64,000 nt of DNA from Candidatus Doudnabacteria bacterium (GTDB lineage Bacteria; Patescibacteriota; Doudnabacteria; UBA920; O2-02-FULL-48-8), in assembly GCA_016199215.1 (NCBI GenBank), contig JACQHB010000009.1, forward strand, positions 4,905 to 68,904, in the 5' to 3' direction. The translations under genes were made by a program, and so were the position numbers. Shown here piece by piece: positions 4,853-63,297 of the stretch. The first letter of the stretch is position 1, and the number at the start of each line of letters is the position of its first letter. The notes beneath the pieces were generated by a model. It saw only the letters and a list, made by a program, of their open reading frames with translations. It made no database searches and was not told the origin of the DNA.

Positions 4853-4886
4853 AAAAACTGCTCCTGACTAGGAGCAGTTTTTCTTT
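4853..4886. terminator. bidirectional intrinsic terminator between ruvC (+) and tyrS (-)
   Basis: Perfect hairpin aaaaactgctcct-gact-aggagcagttttt with T/A runs on both sides. It is preceded by a second palindrome at 4801-4840 (ttatttcca...tggaaataa). Confidence 0.7.
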
Positions 4887-6060
4887 AAACTTTCAGCTTT
4901 ATAAACTTTCTCTTGCCGACCTGTAGAACCACGCCGTTGCGCAGGTCCACCATCGTGTCCCATTCGTCAATCACCTCGTCATTGAACTTGACGGCTTTCT
5001 GCTGGACCAGCCTTCGCGCTTCACTTTTGCTTGGGGCCAATTTTGTCTCCACCAACAAATCAATGATGTTCTGGGATTTAACTTTCATTTCCGTCATTTG
5101 AGTCGGTTTTTCTTTACGGGAAAAAACTTTTTCAAATTCTTTGGCCGCAGCATCCGCGGCTTTTTTCCCGTGATATAGTGTAACCAATTCATGGGCCAAT
5201 CGTTTTTTTATTAGGCTGGGATTAGTCCCGGCCTTTAATTCTTTCTCATAGCCTTTTACGTCATCAAGAGGAACTCTTGTCGTGAATTGGAAATATTTTA
5301 TGATCAGATCATCTTTGATCGACATGGTCTTGCCAAACATTTGATTAGGGTCATCCGTAAGGTTGATTACATTCCCCCAAGACGAGCTCATTTTCCTGCC
5401 ATCTGTTCCTTCGAGCAATTCTGTCATGACAATATCTTGCGGCGCTTGAGCGTAAAGAGGCTGAATGGTCCTACCCGCTAGCAAGTTGAATCTTTGATCT
5501 GTGCCGCCCAACTCCACGTCAGCCTTCACCGCCACTGAATCATACCCCTGCATTAACGGATACATCATCTCATGGAAAGACACTCTTTTGCCAGCTTTCA
5601 ATCGCTTGGCAATAATCTCCCGCGATTCAAATTCATGCAAACCGAAAAGCTGGGCCATCTTGGCAATCTCGATAAATCCTAGCTTGGAAAGCCACTCCGA
5701 ATTATAATGGGCCTCGGTTTTTTTTGGATCCAGAATCTTAAAAGCTTGGTCCAGATAAGTTTTCATGTTAGCTTTTATCTGCTGCCCTGAAAGCATCGGC
5801 CGTTCCGCTTCCTTATCTGAAGTGTCGCCGACCATCCCGGTAAAATCACCGACGATAAAAACGACCTGGTGCCCCAATTCCTGAAACTCCCGGAGTTTCC
5901 AAAGCTGGACAGCGCGACCAATGTGAAGATTGGGGCTGGTCGGATCTATCCCCAACTTAACCCTAAGTCTTTTACCACCGTCCAATTGTTTCTTAAGATG
6001 ATTCAAGTCTATGATTTCGGCAACTGTGCGGGTCAAGATTTCATTGGTTTTTTGATTCAT
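4885..6060 (-). CDS. tyrS: tyrosine--tRNA ligase
   Basis: HIGH-type motif (PNLHIGRAV), KMSKS-type motif (KMSSS) and a C-terminal S4-like domain; 391 aa. Confidence 0.85.
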   Translation of the reverse strand: MNQKTNEILTRTVAEIIDLNHLKKQLDGGKRLRVKLGIDPTSPNLHIGRAVQLWKLREFQELGHQVVFIVGDFTGMVGDTSDKEAERPMLSGQQIKANMKTYLDQAFKILDPKKTEAHYNSEWLSKLGFIEIAKMAQLFGLHEFESREIIAKRLKAGKRVSFHEMMYPLMQGYDSVAVKADVELGGTDQRFNLLAGRTIQPLYAQAPQDIVMTELLEGTDGRKMSSSWGNVINLTDDPNQMFGKTMSIKDDLIIKYFQFTTRVPLDDVKGYEKELKAGTNPSLIKKRLAHELVTLYHGKKAADAAAKEFEKVFSRKEKPTQMTEMKVKSQNIIDLLVETKLAPSKSEARRLVQQKAVKFNDEVIDEWDTMVDLRNGVVLQVGKRKFIKLKV

Positions 6061-6117
6061 ATGTTAATTATACCAGTTTTTTGATACAATTTAAAAGGCT
6101 TTGATAAATCTTTATGA

Positions 6118-6215
6118 ATCCCGTTAGAAATTGCGTATCATATACGTTAATAATGATATTGCAATCAACCGGGATAAAATTACAATTAACTTCTAATCAT
6201 TATTTCTAACGGGAT
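6118..6215. promoter_or_regulatory. pair of 14-bp inverted repeats ATCCCGTTAGAAAT / ATTTCTAACGGGAT in the tyrS<->PBP1A divergent region; the right arm overlaps the PBP1A start codon
   Basis: Exact reverse-complement arms seen at 6118-6131 and 6202-6215. The same motif recurs at 20605-20704. Confidence 0.55.
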
Positions 6216-8790
6216 GAACTTCTACCGCTCAAACTGGAACCGGAACCATCGAATGAGTCTTAGGAAAATTTTATGGGGAATTTTGAAAGTTCCTCCAGCG
6301 GTTTTCCGAAAAATTCGTTCGGAAAAAAAGCTTGCAAAAAAATTAATCAAATACGGGTTATTCGCCATAGCCGGTTTGATCATTGCCGGAAGTCTGGCTT
6401 TCGCCGCCATTGCTTTAAGTCTGCCTGACCCGACCAAGCTTAATGCTCGGGTCGTCCCTGAATCAACCAAAATCTACGCCAGAGACGGAACGACACTTCT
6501 TTACGAAATCCATGGCGAGGCCAAACGGACCGTGATTGATTTTAATGAAATTCCGGATAGGGTTAAAAAATCAACTATCGCCGTGGAGGACAAAAATTTT
6601 TACCGCAATACAGGAGTTGACTGGAAAGGAATTATTCGGGCCGCTTTGCGCAACGTAAGCTCTGGAAACATAAAAGGACAGGGTGGTTCCACAATTACTC
6701 AGCAGTTTGTGAAAAACGCGATTTTAACCCGAGAAAAAACTTTTTCAAGAAAAATAAAAGAAATCGTGCTTGCGATTCAATTGGAACAAAAATTTAGTAA
6801 GAATGAAATTCTCAACTTCTACCTAAACGAGATCCCGTATGGCCAAAACGCCTATGGGATTGAGGCGGCTTCTCAAACCTATTTTGGAAAACAGGCAAAA
6901 AATCTAAGCCTCGCCGAATCAGCGTACTTGGCTGCCCTTCCGCAGGCTCCGACTTTTTATTCCCCTAACGGCCCCAACAGGGATAAGCTGGATGCGAGAA
7001 AAAATTTCGTGCTGGATGAAATGCGATCCGAAGGATACATCACGGATAAGGAACGCGATGACGCGAAAAACGAAAAAGTCACTTTTAATAAAATCCGGGA
7101 TTCGATATTAGCCCCTCACTTTGTCCTTTATGTTCAAGGACAGCTTGCGGAAAAATACGGCGAGAAAACTCTGGAAGAAGGGGGGCTTAAGGTTATAACT
7201 TCGCTTGACTGGAATTTCCAACAAATCGCTGAAAAAGCGGTGAGCGAGGGTGTGGCAAGGAATGAAAAAAGAAACAAAGCGAGCAATGCCGCGCTGGTCG
7301 CCATTGATCCCAAAACCGGACAAATTCTGTCTATGGTCGGCTCTCGAGAATATCTCAAGCCAGATTGCGATTATTGCCAAGTCAATGTTGCCTTGCGTGA
7401 GCTCCAACCGGGATCCTCTATTAAACCTTATGTCTACGCAACCGCATTTAAAGAAGGCATGAATCCGGCAACCATGCTGGTTGATGTTAAAACGAGTTTT
7501 GGCACTTACGGCGGCAAAGACTACAGCCCCTCAAATTATGACGGCAGATCCCATGGACTGCTTTCAATGAGAAAAGCCTTAGCCGGATCCTTAAACGTAC
7601 CAGCAGTCAAAACCTTGGCCTTAGTCGGGGTGCAAGACGCGATTGATACCATAAAAGACATGGGGATTACTGCTGATCTTAACACGGACCGCTGCGGCCT
7701 TTCATTGGTTTTGGGAGGATGCGAAATCAGCCTGCTTGATCACACTTCAGCAATGGGAGTATTTGCTGGTGGCGGAGTCCGTTACGAACCAACCCCGATT
7801 CTTAAGATTACCGACAGGAAGGGAAAAGTATTGGAAGAATACAAAGACAAAGGCGGACAAGAAGTCATTGATCCGCAGGTGGCCTACCAGGTGGTCAGTA
7901 TTATGACTGACAATGATTCCAGGTCGTTTATCTTTGGCGCCAAATCCCCGCTGATCCTTTCGGATCGGGTGGTTGCAGCCAAAACCGGAACTACCCAGGG
8001 GTGGAGGGATGGCTGGACCATGGGCTTCACGCCTTCATTGGTCGCAGGAGTTTGGGTGGGTAACAACGACGGAAGTCTAATGAGAGAAGGTGCAGACGGA
8101 GTGGTGGTGGCCGCTCCTATTTGGAACCAATTCATGCGAGAGGCTTTAAAAAATACCCAACCCGAACAATTTTTAGAGCCAGCCGGGATCCAACACATTC
8201 TGGTCGATTCGGTTTCAGGCAAACTTCCAACGCAATATACGCCTTCGACAAAAACCGATGTTTTTGCAAGCTTTGCCTTACCCAGGGATTTTGATGATGT
8301 GCATGTCCCTGTTCAAATTAATAAGCTTAACGGAAAACTCGCCAATAACCTTACCCCTCCCGAACTTGTGGAGACTAAAATTTATACAATTATCCATTCC
8401 GAAGTGCCGGATAACCCCAATTGGGAAATTCCCGTGCAATCTTGGGCCAAGTCAGCTGGATACAGCTACCCCCAAACCGAGGAAGATGATGGTTCGATTA
8501 ACTCCGAGTATTTAAAGCAACAAGTGGGGTTTATCACTCCTTCCAACAATCAAGAAATTCCAACCTTGCCCATTACGGTTCAGGTTGAGACAGGCACGTT
8601 GGACGTTTCCGATGTCGAACTAATGCTGGAAGGGGAATTTCTTGGGAACGATACTTCCGCTCCCTATAGCTTTTTTGTGGACTCTGCCAAGAGCGGGTGG
8701 CAAACCATGACCGCGATAGTCAAGCTAAAAAACGGCGATTCAATCCAAAACAGCATTCGCATAAATGTCACGGCCAATGCCAATCAATAA
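6214..8790 (+). CDS. class A penicillin-binding protein (PBP1A family transglycosylase/transpeptidase) with a long C-terminal extension
   Basis: N-terminal TM segment, glycosyltransferase family 51 motifs (EDKNFYRNTGVD, ...NEIPYGQNAYGIEAASQTYFGK), transpeptidase SxxK (SSIKP) and KTG motifs. About 250 aa of unassigned C-terminal sequence follows. Confidence 0.9.
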   Translation: MNFYRSNWNRNHRMSLRKILWGILKVPPAVFRKIRSEKKLAKKLIKYGLFAIAGLIIAGSLAFAAIALSLPDPTKLNARVVPESTKIYARDGTTLLYEIHGEAKRTVIDFNEIPDRVKKSTIAVEDKNFYRNTGVDWKGIIRAALRNVSSGNIKGQGGSTITQQFVKNAILTREKTFSRKIKEIVLAIQLEQKFSKNEILNFYLNEIPYGQNAYGIEAASQTYFGKQAKNLSLAESAYLAALPQAPTFYSPNGPNRDKLDARKNFVLDEMRSEGYITDKERDDAKNEKVTFNKIRDSILAPHFVLYVQGQLAEKYGEKTLEEGGLKVITSLDWNFQQIAEKAVSEGVARNEKRNKASNAALVAIDPKTGQILSMVGSREYLKPDCDYCQVNVALRELQPGSSIKPYVYATAFKEGMNPATMLVDVKTSFGTYGGKDYSPSNYDGRSHGLLSMRKALAGSLNVPAVKTLALVGVQDAIDTIKDMGITADLNTDRCGLSLVLGGCEISLLDHTSAMGVFAGGGVRYEPTPILKITDRKGKVLEEYKDKGGQEVIDPQVAYQVVSIMTDNDSRSFIFGAKSPLILSDRVVAAKTGTTQGWRDGWTMGFTPSLVAGVWVGNNDGSLMREGADGVVVAAPIWNQFMREALKNTQPEQFLEPAGIQHILVDSVSGKLPTQYTPSTKTDVFASFALPRDFDDVHVPVQINKLNGKLANNLTPPELVETKIYTIIHSEVPDNPNWEIPVQSWAKSAGYSYPQTEEDDGSINSEYLKQQVGFITPSNNQEIPTLPITVQVETGTLDVSDVELMLEGEFLGNDTSAPYSFFVDSAKSGWQTMTAIVKLKNGDSIQNSIRINVTANANQ

Positions 8791-17819: not shown

Positions 17820-19064
17820 TCATAGCACAAACTCGCCGTGCTCATAGACGACCCTTTCCTGGCCGTTTTTTAGATGCGCAACAACGGTCCGGGAAGAGGT
17901 AGAAATAATATCCGTATGCACAGAAGAATCATTGAAACCCAAAGATTCTGCCTGTTTTTTGGAAAGATTGGAAGCATCCCCCGCGTAAGTGTCCTTGTAG
18001 GACATTCCAAGAGCGATGTGGGTGTTTCCGTTTGGTCCTCCCATATTTTCGTCAAACAAGGTTTCGGCCATGAATTTGGTGATGCGAGAGAAGCGGCGGT
18101 CAGTTAGTGAAAATTCCCCAATTTTATTTGCACCAGGCGTATTGATCATTTCCTTGAGAAGTTTTTCGTTGGTTTTGGCCCTGCTTCTTACCACCTTCCC
18201 ATTTTCAAACTGAAGCTTAATACCTGTTATTTTATTGCTGTAGCGGTAAAGAGGCTGGTTGAACCTGATCCACCCCTGCGTGCCTCGCCAGTCCGGCGAG
18301 GTAAACAATTCAAAGCTTGGGATGTTGCGCCCGCCGCCCCCGCACCACTTTCTTTTTTCTCCGGGCTTAAGCCAAAGATTTGCTTCTGGCCCAATAACGT
18401 GCAATCGATCGATCTTCGGCGTAAGCTTGTTTAATTTTTTGCGGTAGTGTTCTAATTTTTGATAAGTTTTTTTCCATTTACCAATCGGGTCTTTTTGATC
18501 AAGAAAGCAAGCCTTAATAATTTGGTTCCAGTAGGCCTTTTCCGACAGCCCGGCTTCCTTGGCCATGGCAGGGGTCCCATACAGACCAATAGTCCAGGTA
18601 AATTTGCCTTCCCATTCTTTTTTGTGCCGCCAATCAGTAAACGGCTTAAGCGCGACTCCGCGCCTCATTATTTTTTTTGGGTCAACTCCGGCAAGGGCGC
18701 GGGGGTCGGCGTCAGCCAGGATGAAAACCGAGTGATCCATTTGCTCGACCAGGCCCTTGAGATATTTATGCGGAAAGTGATCCATCTGGTGGTCCTGCGC
18801 GTGCTGGTAAAAGTAGCGGGTGAAGCTTTCGTTGCGACGACGGTCCCCCTGCTCTTCGTCAGGAGAATAATGCGACAGCACGTGCCCGCCGGCGTCAATA
18901 ACAGCATTACATACGGCTAAATATAGCCGCCGGCCGGATTCTGAACTGCTCACGCGGACCACATCTCCTTTTTTGATTCCCTTGCCCCCGCCCAGAGCAA
19001 AACGGACCAGAACTTTGGCATAGCGGTCAAGAATAATTTGAGAGGGTTGGTAATTTTTTTTCAT
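17820..19064 (-). CDS. M29 family aminopeptidase (AmpS/aminopeptidase T-like)
   Basis: The C-terminal half matches the M29 family (...IGEFSLTD...NTHIALG...VHTDII). About 414 aa, typical for the family. Confidence 0.65.
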   Translation of the reverse strand: MKKNYQPSQIILDRYAKVLVRFALGGGKGIKKGDVVRVSSSESGRRLYLAVCNAVIDAGGHVLSHYSPDEEQGDRRRNESFTRYFYQHAQDHQMDHFPHKYLKGLVEQMDHSVFILADADPRALAGVDPKKIMRRGVALKPFTDWRHKKEWEGKFTWTIGLYGTPAMAKEAGLSEKAYWNQIIKACFLDQKDPIGKWKKTYQKLEHYRKKLNKLTPKIDRLHVIGPEANLWLKPGEKRKWCGGGGRNIPSFELFTSPDWRGTQGWIRFNQPLYRYSNKITGIKLQFENGKVVRSRAKTNEKLLKEMINTPGANKIGEFSLTDRRFSRITKFMAETLFDENMGGPNGNTHIALGMSYKDTYAGDASNLSKKQAESLGFNDSSVHTDIISTSSRTVVAHLKNGQERVVYEHGEFVL

Positions 19065-19066
19065 GG

Positions 19067-20191
19067 CTATTGGCTGGGGGTTTGAGGGTTAGGGGTAGTT
19101 GCTTGCTCTTCCGGATGAAACAGCGCCGGCGGTAAATATGTGCTTCTAAATACCTGCTCGGTAGTGGTTCCGTTAAGCTTAACCCTTCTGGTCCAAGTGG
19201 CTTTCATTGAACCGTCTGTCTTCTTATCATACTGGACCGGACCGTCAAACTCCACTATCCGGTCGTCTTTGGTTCCGTAAAAATCAAAGAACAGCCTGGT
19301 TCCCTCGATCCTGGTCCAAACCAGCAGGCTTGAATTAAGATTATTTGTGAATCGTAAATCCGTGACACCCGGGTAAATTGTGGCGTCGCTTCCTTGAGGG
19401 GCGTAATACTGCACCGCAAACGAATGGGCTCTGCGTTCCACAATTGGCAGGCCGGCATTCATGGCAGCCCGAAAAGTGGTGGAAGAAACCTGGCATAATC
19501 CGCCGCCGAACTCCGGCACAACCCCGGTGCGCTTGATTACCAGTTCCGGCAAGAAGCCGTGTTCGGCATCAACGTCGCCTAAAAATTTGTTGAAGGAGAA
19601 TTCCTCCCCGGGCCTTATGATCACTCCATTGAATTTAGCGGAACCTACCCTGATGTTGGTAATCCGATTCTTGGGCGATCCTTTGAAATTCGATTCCCCT
19701 GTTGCCACCAGCTCGTTGATTCCAAGGCTATTGGTTTCAGAAAGCTTTATGGAGGAAGAAGAAGTGACAACCGGCAGGCTGAATTTGTCTTGACCCGAAA
19801 GCAGAAGCTGGGAAAGTTTGTTTGTATCCAACGACTGCCCGTCTTTGCCGGGGCTGAATTCTTTTGTCCGCTCGCCTTCTAAAACCAATTTAGCCTGTTC
19901 GGATTTTTGGTTTATCTCCAAAGCGATTTGGTTGATTGCTTCTAATGTTGAATCAGAAAAAATTTTTTGCTGGACAGGGCTAGGGCTTCCGGTTATTTTT
20001 TCTTTTGCCAGACCCAAAAGGCTCCCGGCATTCCGAACGGAAGAGCCTGAAACGGTGACCGCTGACGGATTGATCTGCCAGGACTGGTCTTTGAAGGTCG
20101 CTGTCTTGGCCCAAGCGGGCTTGGGAATCAAAAACATAAACACGGCCAACAGCAGGTATTTAGAGTTTTTTAATCTTAACGCTTCGTTCAT
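19067..20191 (-). CDS. VanW family protein (signal peptide + VanW domain)
   Basis: N-terminal signal/TM and a GGGLCQVSSTTFRAAMNAGLPIVERRAHS segment characteristic of VanW/YoaR proteins. Confidence 0.7.
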   Translation of the reverse strand: MNEALRLKNSKYLLLAVFMFLIPKPAWAKTATFKDQSWQINPSAVTVSGSSVRNAGSLLGLAKEKITGSPSPVQQKIFSDSTLEAINQIALEINQKSEQAKLVLEGERTKEFSPGKDGQSLDTNKLSQLLLSGQDKFSLPVVTSSSSIKLSETNSLGINELVATGESNFKGSPKNRITNIRVGSAKFNGVIIRPGEEFSFNKFLGDVDAEHGFLPELVIKRTGVVPEFGGGLCQVSSTTFRAAMNAGLPIVERRAHSFAVQYYAPQGSDATIYPGVTDLRFTNNLNSSLLVWTRIEGTRLFFDFYGTKDDRIVEFDGPVQYDKKTDGSMKATWTRRVKLNGTTTEQVFRSTYLPPALFHPEEQATTPNPQTPSQ

Positions 20192-20585
20192 TAACGTTGG
20201 TAATTTCTATCTGAATTAATAGCTTACACTGCTTTTTTAGTTTTGGGAATTTGTCAATCCACTCAATCATCACAATCCTGTTCCTGCTTTTTATAATTTC
20301 TTCCAATCCCACTCCGGAAAGTTCTTTTATATGTTTTATACGATAAAGATCCAAATGGTAAAACCTGCGGTTATGCGGGAGCTTGTGCGCGGCCATAATG
20401 ATAAAGCTTGGGCTTTTGATATGGCGAAGTCCTAATTTTTTGGCAAAGGCTTTGATAAACGCGGTTTTTCCGCTTCCTAAAACCCCTGAAAGCCCGATTA
20501 CTAAGTCGCGCTGTTTGTTTTTTGCCGCCAAGCCGTAAGCTAGTTTTCTAAACCCCGCCAAATTGAGTTTTCGGTAGATTTCCAT
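20160..20585 (-). CDS. tsaE: tRNA threonylcarbamoyladenosine biosynthesis ATPase TsaE
   Basis: P-loop GVLGSGKTAFIKAF in a ~140-aa protein (YjeE family). Confidence 0.8.
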   Translation of the reverse strand: MEIYRKLNLAGFRKLAYGLAAKNKQRDLVIGLSGVLGSGKTAFIKAFAKKLGLRHIKSPSFIIMAAHKLPHNRRFYHLDLYRIKHIKELSGVGLEEIIKSRNRIVMIEWIDKFPKLKKQCKLLIQIEITNVNERSVKIKKL

Positions 20586-20604
20586 AAGTCATTGTAACGT
20601 AAGT

Positions 20605-20704
20605 TGACCCCGTTAGAAATAGCGGTTATTAATTTCTGAACTGGCGGCCTGATCTTTATCTAATATTCTAAACTGTTGATTGCCACGTGCAATTTCTAAC
20701 GGGG
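20605..20704. promoter_or_regulatory. second copy of the CCCGTTAGAAAT / ATTTCTAACGGG inverted-repeat pair, in the tsaE<->DHH-phosphoesterase divergent region
   Basis: gaccccgttagaaat at ~20605-20619 and atttctaacggggttgac at ~20690-20707, the same arms as at 6118/6202. Confidence 0.55.
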
Positions 20705-20746
20705 TTGACAAGATAGGGCAAAAACCATATATTACTAGGCTAATTT

Positions 20747-21880
20747 ATGCAGGAACTAGTCCAACAAGTTATAGACAAGATTTCTACCGGTTCGAATTTC
20801 CTTATACTGCTGCCTCAACAGCCGGACGGAGATGGAATTGGGGCGGCTTTGGCCATGAGAGCTTTTTTGAAAAAAATGGAAAAAGAGGTTACTTTGGTGG
20901 CTCCGGGACTTGGGTTTGAACAGAAGTTTAATTTTCTGCCCGATTTCGGACAAATCCAGACCAACCTTTCAGTTACCAAGAATTTGGTGATCGATGTTTC
21001 AAACAAGCGAGTCCAGATCGAAGAGCTAAGCTATAAGAAGGAGCAGGACCGGCTTTCTATCTATATAAGACCTAAGGCAGGGCAACTGGAACCTTCTGAC
21101 GTTTCATTCCGGAGCTCTAATTTCCCTTTTGAGTATATTGTCTGTTTGGGCATAGCCTCACTTGACCAGTTGGGCGATTTTTATTCCAACAATACGGAAT
21201 TATTTTTTGAAACGCCAATTATTAATATTGACCACTCTGCCACAAATGATAATTATGGGCAGATAAATTTGGTTCGATTAAACTCAACCTCTAATTCTGA
21301 AATTGTTTTTGACTTGATTAATAATTACGAGGGCTCCCTGGTCGACCAAAACATGGCGACCCAATTGCTGACAGGGATCATTACAAAAACCAACAGCTTT
21401 CAGCACGCGCGAACCACTCCAGCCGCGTTTGTCAAAGCCTCCCAGCTGGTCAGCCTCGGAGGCGATCAGCAGGAAATCATCAAACAGCTTTACAAGACCA
21501 AGAGCCTGGGGCTTCTGAAATTATGGGGGCGCGTCCTGGCCCGATTGAAGTTGACTCCCCAGCTGAATCTGGCTTTGTCCGAGATTAATTCTTCGGATAT
21601 CGAAAAAGCCGGGGCTTCCTCAAATGACATCGAGGGGATCATAAAAGAGATGGCTTCAGAGCTTGGGATGGCTAAGATTTTCGCTTTTTTAATTGAAGAG
21701 AGTCCTAATTCAACAATGTGTTTTGTGGCTTCGGCAATTCCTTTGGACCTGGTTTCAGTATTCAAGGTTTTTCATCCAGAACCAAGCGTAAACGGAGTCA
21801 AGTTTAGGGTGAATGGAAACTTGGCTTTTTCTGAAATGCAATTGACCTCACTGCTTCAAGGAGAAACTGACAAAACGTGA
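20747..21880 (+). CDS. DHH/DHHA1 family phosphoesterase (NrnA-like nanoRNase/pAp phosphatase)
   Basis: N-terminal DHH-domain motifs (DGDGIGAALAM; IINIDHSATNDNYG) and a C-terminal DHHA1-like region. Confidence 0.65.
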   Translation: MQELVQQVIDKISTGSNFLILLPQQPDGDGIGAALAMRAFLKKMEKEVTLVAPGLGFEQKFNFLPDFGQIQTNLSVTKNLVIDVSNKRVQIEELSYKKEQDRLSIYIRPKAGQLEPSDVSFRSSNFPFEYIVCLGIASLDQLGDFYSNNTELFFETPIINIDHSATNDNYGQINLVRLNSTSNSEIVFDLINNYEGSLVDQNMATQLLTGIITKTNSFQHARTTPAAFVKASQLVSLGGDQQEIIKQLYKTKSLGLLKLWGRVLARLKLTPQLNLALSEINSSDIEKAGASSNDIEGIIKEMASELGMAKIFAFLIEESPNSTMCFVASAIPLDLVSVFKVFHPEPSVNGVKFRVNGNLAFSEMQLTSLLQGETDKT

Positions 21881-29047: not shown

Positions 29048-29662
29048 ATGGCCAAAGCCATTGCCCCGTCCGTGTCAGTGGAACAGTCCGAATCGAAGAT
29101 CGCTGGTTTGCTCGATCAGCTCAAGGCGGTCATTCGTCACTCAGGTCTCAACGACGACCAGCTTCAGGCGATTCGCGACAGCGGCCGACTGCCGGTTGAT
29201 TTCGAACCGGTGTTTGCCAAACTCGCAGCCGTGGTCTGCAATGCGATCCGGCTGACGATCTCGACCGTGAAGGCCTTCGAGAAGCCGAGCTGGATGAAGC
29301 GTCTCGTTCGCGGCAACGACCCAGTCACGCCTGGCATCTACGAGTACACCTTCGAAGGATTCCTTCGCGAAGGTGAAGAGTCGGTCAAGGGCGATGAGAT
29401 GGTCGCTCGAGCCAAGGCGTCAGGTGCTTACTCGGGATTGCAGCACGCGCTGTACTTCCTGGACAACCAGCACCTCATTCCGGAGGAGTTCAGGGACAAG
29501 AAATACTTGATCTTTGCCGACACAGAGGCGCTCAACTCCAACGACCGCAGCGATGTGGCCTGCCTCGCGTGGGGCGGCCTCCAGTGGATTCTGTACTGGC
29601 GCTTGCTTGTGGATGACTTTAACCGGAACGATCTGCTCGTTCGCGCCCGCAAGGTCCAGTAG
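29048..29662 (+). CDS. DGR target (variable) protein, 204 aa, with the variable repeat at its C-terminus; no signal peptide and no recognisable domain
   Basis: Its last ~126 bp are repeated with adenine-specific differences ~500 bp downstream (the TR). The gene is visibly GC-rich relative to all flanking genes. Confidence 0.8.
   Translation: MAKAIAPSVSVEQSESKIAGLLDQLKAVIRHSGLNDDQLQAIRDSGRLPVDFEPVFAKLAAVVCNAIRLTISTVKAFEKPSWMKRLVRGNDPVTPGIYEYTFEGFLREGEESVKGDEMVARAKASGAYSGLQHALYFLDNQHLIPEEFRDKKYLIFADTEALNSNDRSDVACLAWGGLQWILYWRLLVDDFNRNDLLVRARKVQ
29527..29652 (+). repeat. DGR variable repeat (VR) with an IMH-like invariant 3' segment
   Basis: Aligns with the TR at 30029-30154, and 15 of 16 mismatches sit at TR adenines. 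The 3' 35 nt (gactttaaccggaacgatctgctcgttcgcgcccg) are identical in both copies. The VR ends 10 bp before the stop codon. Confidence 0.85.
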
Positions 29663-30028: not shown

Positions 30029-30154
30029 GGCGCTCAACTCCAACGACAACAGCAATGTGGCCTACCTCAAGTGGGACGGCAACCAGTGGATTCTGAACTG
30101 GAACTGGCTTGAGAATGACTTTAACCGGAACGATCTGCTCGTTCGCGCCCGAAA
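30029..30154 (+). other. DGR template repeat (TR), non-coding and rich in AAC/AAT codons in the VR frame
   Basis: See the VR entry. The TR contains aac or aat at every position that differs in the VR. The ORF-track ORF 29934-30251 is just this template read as protein. Confidence 0.85.
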
Positions 30155-30180
30155 CTTCCGTGGATACAAAAACTCCTCCC

Positions 30181-38672: not shown

Positions 38673-38739
38673 GACCAAAAATCAAAAAGCAAAATTCAAA
38701 ATTTTTGAACTTTTACCTTTAATTTTTTATTTTTCTCAA

Positions 38740-50784: not shown

Positions 50785-51901
50785 GCATTGCGGTTGGGGA
50801 AGCGAAAGCTTTCTCACCGCGATGCCAGGAGGTTTCCTGAACTAATTTGAGATTAGGATCTGCTTCAAAGTTTTTGACTTTGATTTTTTTGTTTTTATAT
50901 CGATAATAAGCGGCCAGCCCGATCATACCTGCATTATCAGTGGCGAATTCAGGATCCGGAACAACTGATCTGATCCGGTGCTTTTCCCCAAGCAATTTGA
51001 AATTTTTTCTTAGAAGTTCGTTTGCTGAAACTCCGCCGCCAAGCATAATTGTCCTGGGATGGAATTTTTTTATGGCTTGTTCGGTTTTTGAAATCAAGAC
51101 ATCCACTATGGCTTGCTGGACTGAAGCCGCAAGATTTTTCCTGGTTTTGTTGTCCAACTTTTTGCTCGATCGAGCAATGTTTTGGACAGTGTAAAGGACG
51201 GCTGTTTTGAGCCCTGAAAAGCTAAAGGACAAATTGTTGCTTTTGATCATTGGTCTGGGGAAATCGAATGTTTTGGGGTTGCCTTTTTTCGCCAGGGCTG
51301 AAATCCTAGGGCCGCCAGGATAGCCAAGGCCTAAAATTTTTGCGCTTTTGTCAAATGCCTCACCAGCGGCGTCATCCAAAGTTTCCCCCACGATTTTAAA
51401 ATTCCCGTGGCCCTTCATAATCACTAGCAAAGTGTGCCCGCCAGAAACGATGAGGATTAAGGCGGGGAATATTTGATTTTTGAATTTTGATTTTTGAATT
51501 TTGCCAGCGAAGTTGGAATAGATGTGCGCTTCAAGATGATTTATGGGAACGACAGGAATATCCAAAGCAATACCTAAAGTTTTTGCTGTCTGTACCCCGA
51601 CCATTAATGAAGTGATCAACCCAGGGCCTTGGGTAACCGCGATTAAATCAACATTTTTCAATTCTTTTCCAGCCTGTTTTAGAGCAAGTTTGACGCAGGG
51701 AATAATTACAGGCACGTGATTGCGGGCAGCCACTTCCGGAATCACTCCGCCGTGACGGGAGTGAATTGTGGTCTGGGAGGCGACAATATTGGACCTGATG
51801 CGAGGGTAACCCTCGGAACGAGGGTTACCCTCGATGACGGCAGCGGCTGTTTCGTCGCAGCTTGATTCGAGGGCTAAAATAGTTTTAAATTTTTTAGACA
51901 T
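50777..51901 (-). CDS. tsaD: tRNA N6-adenosine threonylcarbamoyltransferase TsaD (Kae1/Gcp)
   Basis: ILALESSCDETAAAV..., ...HRGGVIPEVAARNH... metal-binding motifs; 374 aa. Confidence 0.9.
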   Translation of the reverse strand: MSKKFKTILALESSCDETAAAVIEGNPRSEGYPRIRSNIVASQTTIHSRHGGVIPEVAARNHVPVIIPCVKLALKQAGKELKNVDLIAVTQGPGLITSLMVGVQTAKTLGIALDIPVVPINHLEAHIYSNFAGKIQKSKFKNQIFPALILIVSGGHTLLVIMKGHGNFKIVGETLDDAAGEAFDKSAKILGLGYPGGPRISALAKKGNPKTFDFPRPMIKSNNLSFSFSGLKTAVLYTVQNIARSSKKLDNKTRKNLAASVQQAIVDVLISKTEQAIKKFHPRTIMLGGGVSANELLRKNFKLLGEKHRIRSVVPDPEFATDNAGMIGLAAYYRYKNKKIKVKNFEADPNLKLVQETSWHRGEKAFASPTAMPM

Positions 51902-53917: not shown

Positions 53918-53992
53918 GGCCCTATCGTCTAACGGTTAGGACAGCGGGTTTTCAGTCCGCTAATCTGGGTTCGATTCCCAGTAGGGTCACCA
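53918..53992 (+). tRNA. tRNA-Glu(UUC): tRNA-Glu (anticodon UUC), CCA encoded
   Basis: Hand-folded cloverleaf: acceptor GGCCCTA/TAGGGTC, D-arm GTCT..GGAC, anticodon stem GCGGG/TCCGC with loop TTTTCAG (anticodon TTC), T-arm CTGGG-TTCGATT-CCCAG, discriminator A, then CCA. Confidence 0.8.
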
Positions 53993-54190
53993 AGAATTTA
54001 AAAAAGCTTAGTTAAGGGAATCGAACGGGTTGAAGCGAGACGAGGCATCAGCCGAAGTCGAGCGATCGATTTTGATTAAGTATCAAAATCGCAACCCACG
54101 ACACGATCACGCCAGTGATCGTTGAAGATTCCCAGTAGGGTCACCAAAGAATTTAGAAAAGCTTAGTTAAGGGAATCGAACGGGTTGAAG
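53973..54190 (+). repeat. two ~63-bp direct repeats (53973-54035 and 54127-54190, ~97% identical), each containing the tRNA-Glu 3' end (GATTCCCAGTAGGGTCACCA) plus ~45 bp of downstream sequence
   Basis: Copies aligned by eye; they differ by one extra A and one A/G. The spacer between them contains a perfect 9-bp hairpin gattttgat-taagt-atcaaaatc. Confidence 0.8.
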
Positions 54191-60025: not shown

Positions 60026-60781
60026 CTAATCGGAGTCGTCCTCATCCTCGCTGTCCTGGCTTGACTCACCGCTATTCTGACTCCCTTTGTGCCTGTTCCG
60101 CTCTTCCTTGACTTTGATTTTGGCTTGCTCGATTTGCTTGAAATTTTCTTCGAGCCTGCCTTGCAGCTCCTCGTCGTCCCCGATTTTAATCCGGATTTTG
60201 TTCATTTCTGCTTCGTTGGTATCGGCCAGGTCTTCCAGTTTGATTAAAACTTGATCCAGCTTGGCCGCGGCTTCATCATTGCCGTCTGCCATAGTCTTTT
60301 CCCTGGCCATAGTCACTGATTCAATCGCCCTGCTTAAGCCGTTTACTGATTGATTGACCGCTTCGACTTTTTGCTCTTTTCGGTCGGAAGCTGAATTGGA
60401 AAGCTCGTCTAATTCCAATGCCCGTTCGTTTACGAACCTTACGTGCAGCTTGGCTTTGGTCTGTACTGTTGGCGCAAGTTTTAAGGCTATATTTTCCTGC
60501 CACGTATCCAGCAAGAAAAGCCTATCGCCCGGTTTGGAAGAATTGGCATAAGCCAAAGTGGTAGTCAGGCCTATGGCCACGACGGCTAAAGCGGAGGCAA
60601 AACCGTATTTTGGAATCAGCCGGCGATGATTGAAAACGCTGTCTTGTTTTGGCTGAGGCCGGTTAGCAAGAGACGAAAGCAGTTTGATTTTTAAGGAGTC
60701 TTTGGCAAATGGAAAATCAGGCTGATTTTTGATCAGGTTGATGATTTTTTCTTTTTCAGATTTTGACTTTAACCAAAACAT
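60026..60781 (-). CDS. putative anti-sigma factor (single TM, coiled-coil, acidic C-terminal extracytoplasmic domain)
   Basis: Sits immediately downstream of, and nearly abutting, the ECF sigma gene. One central TM helix (GFASALAVVAIGLTTTLAYA). Confidence 0.5.
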   Translation of the reverse strand: MFWLKSKSEKEKIINLIKNQPDFPFAKDSLKIKLLSSLANRPQPKQDSVFNHRRLIPKYGFASALAVVAIGLTTTLAYANSSKPGDRLFLLDTWQENIALKLAPTVQTKAKLHVRFVNERALELDELSNSASDRKEQKVEAVNQSVNGLSRAIESVTMAREKTMADGNDEAAAKLDQVLIKLEDLADTNEAEMNKIRIKIGDDEELQGRLEENFKQIEQAKIKVKEERNRHKGSQNSGESSQDSEDEDDSD

Positions 60782-62286: not shown

Positions 62287-63251
62287 ATGAAGTAATAATT
62301 ATCGGTGGCGGGGTGGCGGCGTTTTCAGCCGCTTTGTTCGCGGCAAGGCGAGGCTTGTCGGTTTTGGTGTTAGGAAAAGATATTGGCGGACAGGCAAATT
62401 TTACGGATGTGATTGAGAATTATCCCGGCCTGCCCCGGGTCGGAGGCAATGAGCTGGTGGAATCGATTAAAAAGCAGGCCTTAGGTTTTGGAGCTAAGTT
62501 TGAGACGGCTGAGGTAAGTAAGATTAGAAAAGCGCCAGGAGGCAATTTTATTGTTTTTGCATACGGCAAGCAATATAAATCCCAAAGTATAATTTTGGCT
62601 TTTGGGAAAACTCCAAAAGATCTGGATGTGCCTGGAGAAGAAGAATTCAAGGGCAAAGGAATTGTTTATTGCGGAATCTGCGACGGACCCTTATTTAAAA
62701 ACAAAATTGTGGCAGTGGTCGGAGTCGGGGACCTGGCCATTGAAGAGGCTTTATTTTGCGCCAAATTCGCCAAGCGTGTATTTTTACTGTCCAAAACGGA
62801 TAAAATCATGGGGCATCCGGCATTGGTCAAGGCTATTTCGAAAAAATCGAATATCGAGATTTTGCAGTTTGTTCGAGTGGAAGAAATTAAAGGAAGATCG
62901 GAAGTGGAAAGCCTGAAGCTGCTGGATTTAAAAACGAATAAGCCCAAACATTTGCCAATTAACGGAATATTAGTAGAATTAGGATACGTGGTTAAATCAG
63001 AATTTGTTGCTGGCTTGGTTAAGCTGGACCAAAATAGCCAGATCATCGTCAATCCGGACCAATCTACTTCCTGCGAAGGAATTTTTGCCGCCGGAGACGC
63101 GACCAACAGGCCTTATAAGCAGGCCACGATTTCAGCCGGGGAGGGAGCAGCAGCAGGCTTGGCCGCCTTTGACTGGCTAATGAGGCAAAGATCGGGGCAA
63201 GGCTTGACCTCGGATTGGACACAGATCAAGAAGGTTAAAATTAAAAAATAA
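62283..63251 (+). CDS. thioredoxin-reductase-like FAD/NAD(P)-dependent oxidoreductase (CGIC redox motif)
   Basis: VIIIGGGVAAFSAALFAARRG FAD motif, CGICDG disulfide motif, second Rossmann motif VVGVGDLAIEEA. Confidence 0.7.
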   Translation: MNEVIIIGGGVAAFSAALFAARRGLSVLVLGKDIGGQANFTDVIENYPGLPRVGGNELVESIKKQALGFGAKFETAEVSKIRKAPGGNFIVFAYGKQYKSQSIILAFGKTPKDLDVPGEEEFKGKGIVYCGICDGPLFKNKIVAVVGVGDLAIEEALFCAKFAKRVFLLSKTDKIMGHPALVKAISKKSNIEILQFVRVEEIKGRSEVESLKLLDLKTNKPKHLPINGILVELGYVVKSEFVAGLVKLDQNSQIIVNPDQSTSCEGIFAAGDATNRPYKQATISAGEGAAAGLAAFDWLMRQRSGQGLTSDWTQIKKVKIKK

Positions 63252-63297
63252 AAATTCAAAAATTTTTATCTTTTCCTTTTTAATTTTGAATTACTTT

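Follow-up and report, generated by a model that had tools for sequence, protein, structure and literature searches.

The genomes of Patescibacteria are tiny and streamlined, and are considered to be poor in mobile elements. Insertion sequences of the IS1380 family (ISfinder nomenclature) have 'CC' ends and generate duplications of 4-5 bp. This family is the prokaryotic sister group of the piggyBac superfamily, whose members duplicate a 4-bp target, TTAA (variants TAAA, TCAA and CTAA), and are bounded by terminal repeats of ~13 bp that start with CCC (PMC10813416). Much smaller elements have been described in other bacteria: Correia/NEMIS in Neisseria, RUP in Streptococcus pneumoniae and MITEAba12 in Acinetobacter are non-coding, ~100 bp in length, and carry terminal inverted repeats (TIRs) and a target-site duplication (TSD); bacterial MITEs are moreover multi-copy, mostly intergenic and close to genes, hairpin-forming and able to alter promoters (PMC3184786, PMC6382973). 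The sequence analysed here is alike in all these respects. It is very probably a non-coding DNA transposon (MITE) of ~97 bp, with 13-bp TIRs (YCCCGTTAGAAAT) and a 4-bp TSD. The kind of element is known; this particular family appears to be undescribed, since the searchable literature holds no description of the sequence, nor of MITEs in Patescibacteria.

Insertion sites at PBP1A and the DHH phosphoesterase gene

The window, i.e. the whole 64-kb stretch of Doudnabacteria DNA that was analysed, contains the arm CCCGTTAGAAAT at positions 6120-6131, followed after 70 nt by its perfect reverse complement (6202-6213; site 1), and the same arm pair at 20609-20620 and 20692-20703, with a gap of 71 nt (site 2). 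Four exact occurrences of the 12-mer or its complement in 64 kb, compared to ~0.008 expected by our own arithmetic, are far above chance, and the arm 11-mer, with up to one mismatch allowed, has six matches in the window compared to a mean of 1.5 after shuffling. Both copies sit between divergently transcribed genes, for all four of which matching Pfam assignments were obtained from relatives. The features of the two sites are as follows:

4885-6060, minus strand: tyrS, flanking site 1
6088-6096, plus strand: ancestral extended -10 box of PBP1A, TGATACAAT, within the block CCAGTTTTTTGATACAATT common to the relatives
6115-6118, no strand: left TSD of site 1, TGAA, which together with A6114 makes up the ancestral, now orphaned PBP1A ATG
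6119-6214, no strand: MITE copy 1, 96 bp, consisting of TIR TCCCGTTAGAAAT, a 70-nt interior and TIR ATTTCTAACGGGA; exact arms, empty site in the relative L122
6159-6186, plus strand: promoter-like TTGCAA-N16-TACAAT in copy 1, directed towards PBP1A, a candidate replacement promoter
6214-8790, plus strand: PBP1A, flanking site 1, as given by the ORF listing
6215-6218, no strand: right TSD of site 1, TGAA, whose TG is part of the current PBP1A ATG (6214-6216)
20160-20585, minus strand: tsaE, flanking site 2
20604-20607, no strand: left TSD of site 2, TTGA, from the window sequence and the comparison with the relative L129
20608-20704, no strand: MITE copy 2, 97 bp, consisting of TIR CCCCGTTAGAAAT, a 71-nt interior and TIR ATTTCTAACGGGG; exact arms, empty site in L129
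20705-20708, no strand: right TSD of site 2, TTGA, which restores the -35 box TTGACA (20705-20710) in the DHH promoter TTGACA-N17-TATATT
20747-21880, plus strand: DHH phosphoesterase gene, flanking site 2

A preliminary description of this DNA had pointed to 14-bp inverted arms between tyrS and PBP1A. These 14-mers (6118-6131 and 6202-6215) are indeed exact; 13 bp of them form the inverted repeat, but the outer A...T pair is the last and the first base, respectively, of the duplicated TGAA. The right arm, said to overlap the PBP1A ATG, abuts the start codon, to which it contributes A6214, the final base of the element. The recurrence of the arms between tsaE and the DHH gene had been correctly spotted, but the '...GTTGAC' extension reported there is made of the G/C of the repeat plus the duplicated TTGA, and the latter is a direct repeat (20604-20607 and 20705-20708), not an inverted one. 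The interiors differ, as had been noted: those of copies 1 and 2 could not be aligned to each other in either orientation, and a search for relatives of the two in JGI metagenomes found none. A common GCAATCAA is real in both interiors but occurs in just 2 of 128, at differing distances from the arms, and is not a feature of the family. The coding capacity of the two copies amounts to chance ORFs of 31-32 aa.

The relatives keep the PBP1A/tyrS and tsaE/DHH gene orders but lack the arms, and their empty sites hold a single copy of the 4-mer. At site 1, the closest relative (L122, whose TyrS is 82% identical) reads ...GATACAATTAAAATCACC ATGAAA TTTTAC... (MKFYQSNWN), where the window reads ...ATCTTT ATGAA T[CCCG...CGGG]A TGAAC TTCTAC... 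(MNFYRSNWN). The PBP1A N-terminus is thus conserved from the element boundary onwards, and the tyrS-PBP1A intergenic distance is 32 nt in L122 vs 153 nt in the window. At site 2, the empty site of L129 reads ...GCGTAAG TTGA CAAGTTGG..., with an intergenic gap of 61 nt, and the window reads ...ACGTAAG TTGA [C...G] TTGA CAAGATAGG..., with a gap of 161 nt. These comparisons show that both insertions are younger than the separation of the lineage from its closest sampled relatives. In the PBP1A start codon, copy 1 went in between the A and the TGAA, and the new ATG is composed of the element's own terminal A and the duplicated TG; copy 2 entered the -35 box of the DHH promoter, where the duplication restored TTGACA. 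The block CCAGTTTTTTGATACAATT is conserved in L122, L123, L125 and L127, and the -10 box that it contains is now parted from PBP1A by copy 1. A Met at codon 14 of PBP1A (6253-6255), missing in four relatives, may be a fallback start downstream of the insertion.

Three readings had been offered for the arm pairs: a looping operator, a lineage-specific promoter element, or a MITE-like element inserted in intergenic DNA. The last one is supported by the TSDs, which were found at each pair when looked for (TGAA at site 1, TTGA at site 2), and by the empty sites of the relatives. Paired operators of a DNA-looping regulator, or a promoter element, serving the divergent genes would be in keeping with the location of both copies and with their similar arm spacing (70 and 71 nt), and the host could also have co-opted an inserted element for regulation. 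We consider such a function very unlikely, however: (i), the orthologous intergenic regions lack the arms both at site 1 (L122, L123, L125, L127) and at site 2 (L129, L132), though the promoter blocks are conserved, which rules out a conserved operator; (ii), the arms carry TSDs; and (iii), they keep no fixed register with the -35 and -10 boxes.

A different inverted-repeat element, ~190 nt long (CCCAGTAATACAACTTCGAT ... ATCGAAGTTGATATACTGGG), was observed in relatives that carry the DHH gene (L130:160-400 and L131). Flanked by TATGC on both sides, it occupies the start codon of DHH in another relative from the Doudnabacteria and represents a second family of MITE-like elements at such a position.

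The window also contains other repeats. In the region 53918-54190, the 3' end of tRNA-Glu (53918-53992) and ~43 nt downstream of it (53973-54035) are repeated at 54127-54190, which looks like an att-type duplication from an integrating element. A direct repeat of 131 nt, 86% identical, is found at 29527-29657 and 30029-30159, 502 nt apart; an A/T-rich repeat (AAAATTCAAAAATCAAAA...) occurs at 38676-38727, 51472-51503 and 63228-63296 in direct and inverted orientation; and a perfect 21-nt inverted repeat (CAATCAGTAAACGGCTTAAGC) has its arms 41.7 kb apart, at 18631-18651 and 60332-60352.

Distribution and anatomy of the family

Confinement of the motif to the two loci of the window, with no conservation elsewhere, would have refuted the preliminary description, but this is not what was observed. 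When one genome per species was scanned for paired arms 55-85 nt apart, they were found at 120 genome loci at least. Among the 120 listed, ~65 are from Patescibacteria of many classes; most of the others belong to Desulfobacterota, Planctomycetota or Omnitrophota, and a few come from elsewhere (taxon labels are those of the MAG depositors). A narrower pattern retrieved 57 further loci from JGI metagenomes, and viral contigs gave four matches, on three contigs; annotated plasmids and phages were searched as well and gave no match. The presence of the arms in several phyla, next to unrelated genes, counts against an operator and does not fit the proposal of a lineage-specific promoter element.

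The structure of the family was analysed in 126 complete copies from among the genome-scan matches listed. All copies were gathered by an exact-arm search, and the apparently perfect conservation of the arms is therefore partly overstated. The 12-mer is bordered on its outer side by Y in the left arm and by R in the right arm, bases that are complementary to each other in 95% of the copies; since this outermost pair covaries, the inverted repeat is 13 bp long. The next four flanking bases behave as a direct repeat, with identities of 0.84/0.74/0.76/0.85 per position, whereas read in the inverted sense their two central positions match at 0.08 and 0.26 only. Flanks matching at 5 or more of 6 positions were counted in 61 copies, vs a mean of 12 when flanks were shuffled between copies. 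The duplicated 4-mers have the form T-N-N-A, with TGAA/TTCA and TAAA/TTTA dominating, and flanks of other forms are likewise directly repeated (CTCA/CTCA, CGTG/CGTG, TGGG/TGGG), which argues for a true 4-bp TSD rather than an extended palindrome. The metagenome set gave the same picture, with a complementary terminal pair in 60 of 64 copies and a TSD that matches at 3 or more of its 4 positions in 43 of 64.

The nature of the flanks also bears on the way in which the element moves. By its size and its organisation as an intergenic inverted-repeat doublet it resembles REPINs, and some left flanks (TTAC, TCAC) recall target tetranucleotides of the IS608 type, as if a REPIN- or PATE-type element were moved as ssDNA by an HUH transposase (RAYT or IS200/IS605 TnpA). 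Such elements, however, have no TSD and use one fixed target and right-end sequence per family, whereas the matched 4-mers flanking the present element vary by copy (TGAA, TTCA, TAAA, TTGA, CTCA, CGTG), and this variation rules out HUH-type mobilisation. In addition, the arm CCCGTTAGAAAT is not self-complementary and no RAYT- or TnpA-like family recurs near the copies, so that we regard this origin as highly improbable.

The spacing of the arms ranges from 2 to ~258 nt, with a mode at 75-79, again at odds with an operator. Interiors are unrelated in 100 of the 126 copies, both window copies included, which is unusual for recent copies in one genome. That interiors were copied from nearby DNA was considered and rejected, only other copies of the element being matched. 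Minimal, 'empty' copies consist of the two repeats separated by 2 nt and keep a TTTA or TGAA duplication, and one copy has inserted into the CTAA within the arm of another (L098:7378-7404, L032:3951-4010 and L055:7930-7960 cover the minimal and the nested copies). Copy density is 2 in this 64 kb and reaches 4-5 per 8 kb at some loci. The existence of copies with a 2-nt interior is relevant to a further explanation, an invertible promoter segment (phase-variation switch) flanked by recombinase recognition repeats, which the inverted repeats between divergent genes and the promoter-like sequence of copy 1 might evoke. A segment of ~70 bp is nevertheless very short for recombinase-mediated inversion, the flanking direct repeats and the empty sites are unexpected for invertons, and no recombinase recurs nearby; taken with the minimal copies, this makes an inverton extremely unlikely.

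Degenerate copies were found near exact ones. Where copies are not exact, the four inner positions of the left arm vary in concert with those of the right arm (AGAAGC/GCTTCT, AGACCT/AGGTCT), and the outer CCCGTTAGA is invariant. This covariation fits subfamily-specific transposase-binding sites beside a fixed cleavage end; selection for base pairing would also fit. Both strands of the element fold into long hairpins (-24 to -30 kcal/mol, z from -3.6 to -5.3) and, together with the paired changes of the inner arms, this could suggest a small structured RNA gene (sRNA or ribozyme) of which the arms would be the conserved closing stem. We nonetheless consider an RNA gene very unlikely: the fold signal comes from the arms alone (the median z of interiors taken by themselves is -0.25), complementarity ends at the arm boundary, the interiors are unrelated and show no conserved structure, Rfam gave no match at the gathering threshold and only noise at E <= 1, the element is symmetric and so has no defined strand, and the TSDs and empty sites identify it as inserted DNA.

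A 17-member subfamily in Desulfobacterota has a conserved interior, always with a TTTA duplication and in unrelated flanks. Its members (L056:3922-4014 and 16 related copies) have two interior hairpins with a common strand, CCCCGCTG(C/G), so that alternative pairings are possible; the copy at L056:2475-2599 has a 32-nt insertion in hairpin 1. Elsewhere, the arm can be read in frame as I-S-N-G in N-terminal extensions of host proteins, namely a HIT-family protein and TsaD (L045:414-425, L063:7419-7496), so that parts of the element can become translated.

Start codons and the expression of interrupted genes

The entry of copy 1 into a start codon has many counterparts. With gene starts called crudely from ORFs, an ORF of 80 codons or more starts exactly at the element boundary in 52 of the 126 copies among the matches listed. 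The start codon at the boundary is made of the terminal R of the repeat and the TG of the duplication, and in 37 of these 52 the upstream copy of the TSD still reads ATG. A gene is abutted by 39 of 68 copies in Patescibacteria (57%) vs 2 of 23 in Desulfobacterota. Our null model was the window itself, where 13 genes start with xTGAA and 44 other non-coding TGAA/TTCA sites are present, giving 23% start codons; compared to this value, the Patescibacteria copies of the TGAA class abut a gene in 32 of 44 cases (73%, p = 3e-12). The association was replicated in the metagenomes, where the TGAA class lies at genes in 10 of 13 cases (77%) and the upstream ATG is kept in 13 of 18. In the Patescibacteria genomes, T...A termini that form an ATG seemed to be in excess at gene starts (p = 5e-4); this was not replicated in the metagenome set (p = 1) and is unconfirmed.

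A Shine-Dalgarno sequence is found at only 3 of 37 ancestral starts, and most of these starts have a -10-like box ending 5-9 nt upstream. In the ordinary genes of the window, the -10 box ends 5-7 nt before the ATG, e.g. at 6061-6075 for tyrS (TGGTATAAT-N6-ATG) and at 20586-20596 for tsaE, and a Shine-Dalgarno-like motif precedes just 5 of the 29 genes whose upstream DNA is free. Because Shine-Dalgarno sequences are rare and -10 boxes are near, the genes hit, like the genes of this genome in general, look leaderless, judging from sequence, and the insertion point would correspond approximately to positions +2 to +5 relative to the probable start of transcription.

The interrupted genes may be expressed from an internal promoter, by re-initiation after a short upstream ORF, or through processing of the hairpin RNA. 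Coupling to an upstream ORF would need a reading frame that leads from the orphan ATG through the element and either ends at the TAA of the right arm, four nt ahead of the start, or is fused in frame to the gene. Such a frame is open in 10 of 37 copies, about chance, and coupling was rejected as a general explanation. The 3 copies with a Shine-Dalgarno sequence all have the frame open (p = 0.015, on tiny numbers). An outward -10 box at the gene-proximal end was rejected too, the signal being unspecific: ~46% of all ends, whether gene-proximal, distal or without a gene, have a -10-like hexamer at a distance of 9-10 nt from the boundary.

It is tempting to speculate that the element has adapted to, or been co-opted for, the start-codon position, and acts as a mobile, possibly reversible translational control module, although we think this rather improbable. 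The element would then target the region just downstream of a leaderless transcription start and turn a leaderless gene into one with a hairpin leader of ~100 nt preceded by a tiny upstream ORF; such a module would spread within the streamlined Patescibacteria genomes as well as from one phylum to another. The switch could be a reversible one if the element is moved by a piggyBac/IS1380-like transposase, through excision that leaves no scar.

Whatever its effect on expression, the regeneration of the start codons and promoter boxes in which it sits shows a way for essential genes, PBP1A among them, to withstand an insertion. Genes that naturally occur both with a hairpin leader and without one could be used in studies of leaderless translation and gene control, and would be valuable in organisms that cannot yet be genetically manipulated. 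Gene callers and promoter predictions should also allow for the element, which leaves orphan ATGs behind and displaces the 5' regions that genes appear to have.

Mobilisation and relation to known systems

A plausible route of transposition can be proposed. A DDE-type transposase, acting in trans, would bind both repeats; staggered cuts of 4 nt would be made at a T-N-N-A target and the element joined in; gap repair would then duplicate the 4-mer. An autonomous copy, with a transposase gene bounded by the repeats, was not found in the ~1.3 Mb of fetched loci. The parent was sought through arm pairs 0.3-7.5 kb apart, through core 9-mers with matching TSDs and through protein families recurring near the copies; over the same ~1.3 Mb, nothing but small copies nearby and housekeeping genes came up, and no protein resembling a transposase was recurrent. 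The CCC ends and the 4-bp duplication give a lead, by resemblance only, towards an IS1380/piggyBac-like transposase. Whichever enzyme is responsible, a single MITE superfamily, marked by one 13-bp terminus, is common to Patescibacteria, Desulfobacterota, Planctomycetota and Omnitrophota, an indication that its transposase is widely exchanged within subsurface communities.

How does the element compare to known systems? Integron attC sites were considered and rejected: the order of the cores is reversed (GTTAGAA...TTCTAAC on either strand, compared to 5'-RYYYAAC...GTTRRRY-3'), and attC sites form arrays at the 3' ends of cassettes, whereas the copies studied here are single and lie 5' of housekeeping genes. 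REPIN/RAYT systems and the IS200/IS605-derived PATEs are also short intergenic inverted-repeat doublets that form hairpins; they differ in having no TSD, fixed target tetranucleotides and palindromic arms, and none of these traits was found when the element was tested for them. Elements of the Stowaway/Tourist type offer a parallel in their design, conservation being limited to the repeats here as in the Stowaway MITEs of plants: a short common terminal repeat and a characteristic duplication go together with interiors that are unrelated between families, and they are mobilised in trans by a transposase that requires the termini alone. They are eukaryotic, however, with TA or TWA duplications and transposases of the Tc1/mariner or PIF/Harbinger type, and the parallel is an analogy only.

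With IS1380/piggyBac, the element has in common the 4-bp TSD, repeats of ~13 bp and their CCC start, the repeats beginning (Y)CCCG and the duplication being of T-N-N-A form; it differs from piggyBac in this looser target, mostly TGAA or TAAA and not TTAA, and in the fetched loci its repeats were not found together with any transposase of the IS1380 or piggyBac type. Finally, while it belongs by its general features with the bacterial MITEs Correia/NEMIS, RUP and MITEAba12, the family is set apart from them by repeats that are identical across phyla, by interiors that are mostly unrelated, by its 4-bp T-N-N-A duplication and by its association, in Patescibacteria, with start codons that are regenerated from the element's own terminal base.
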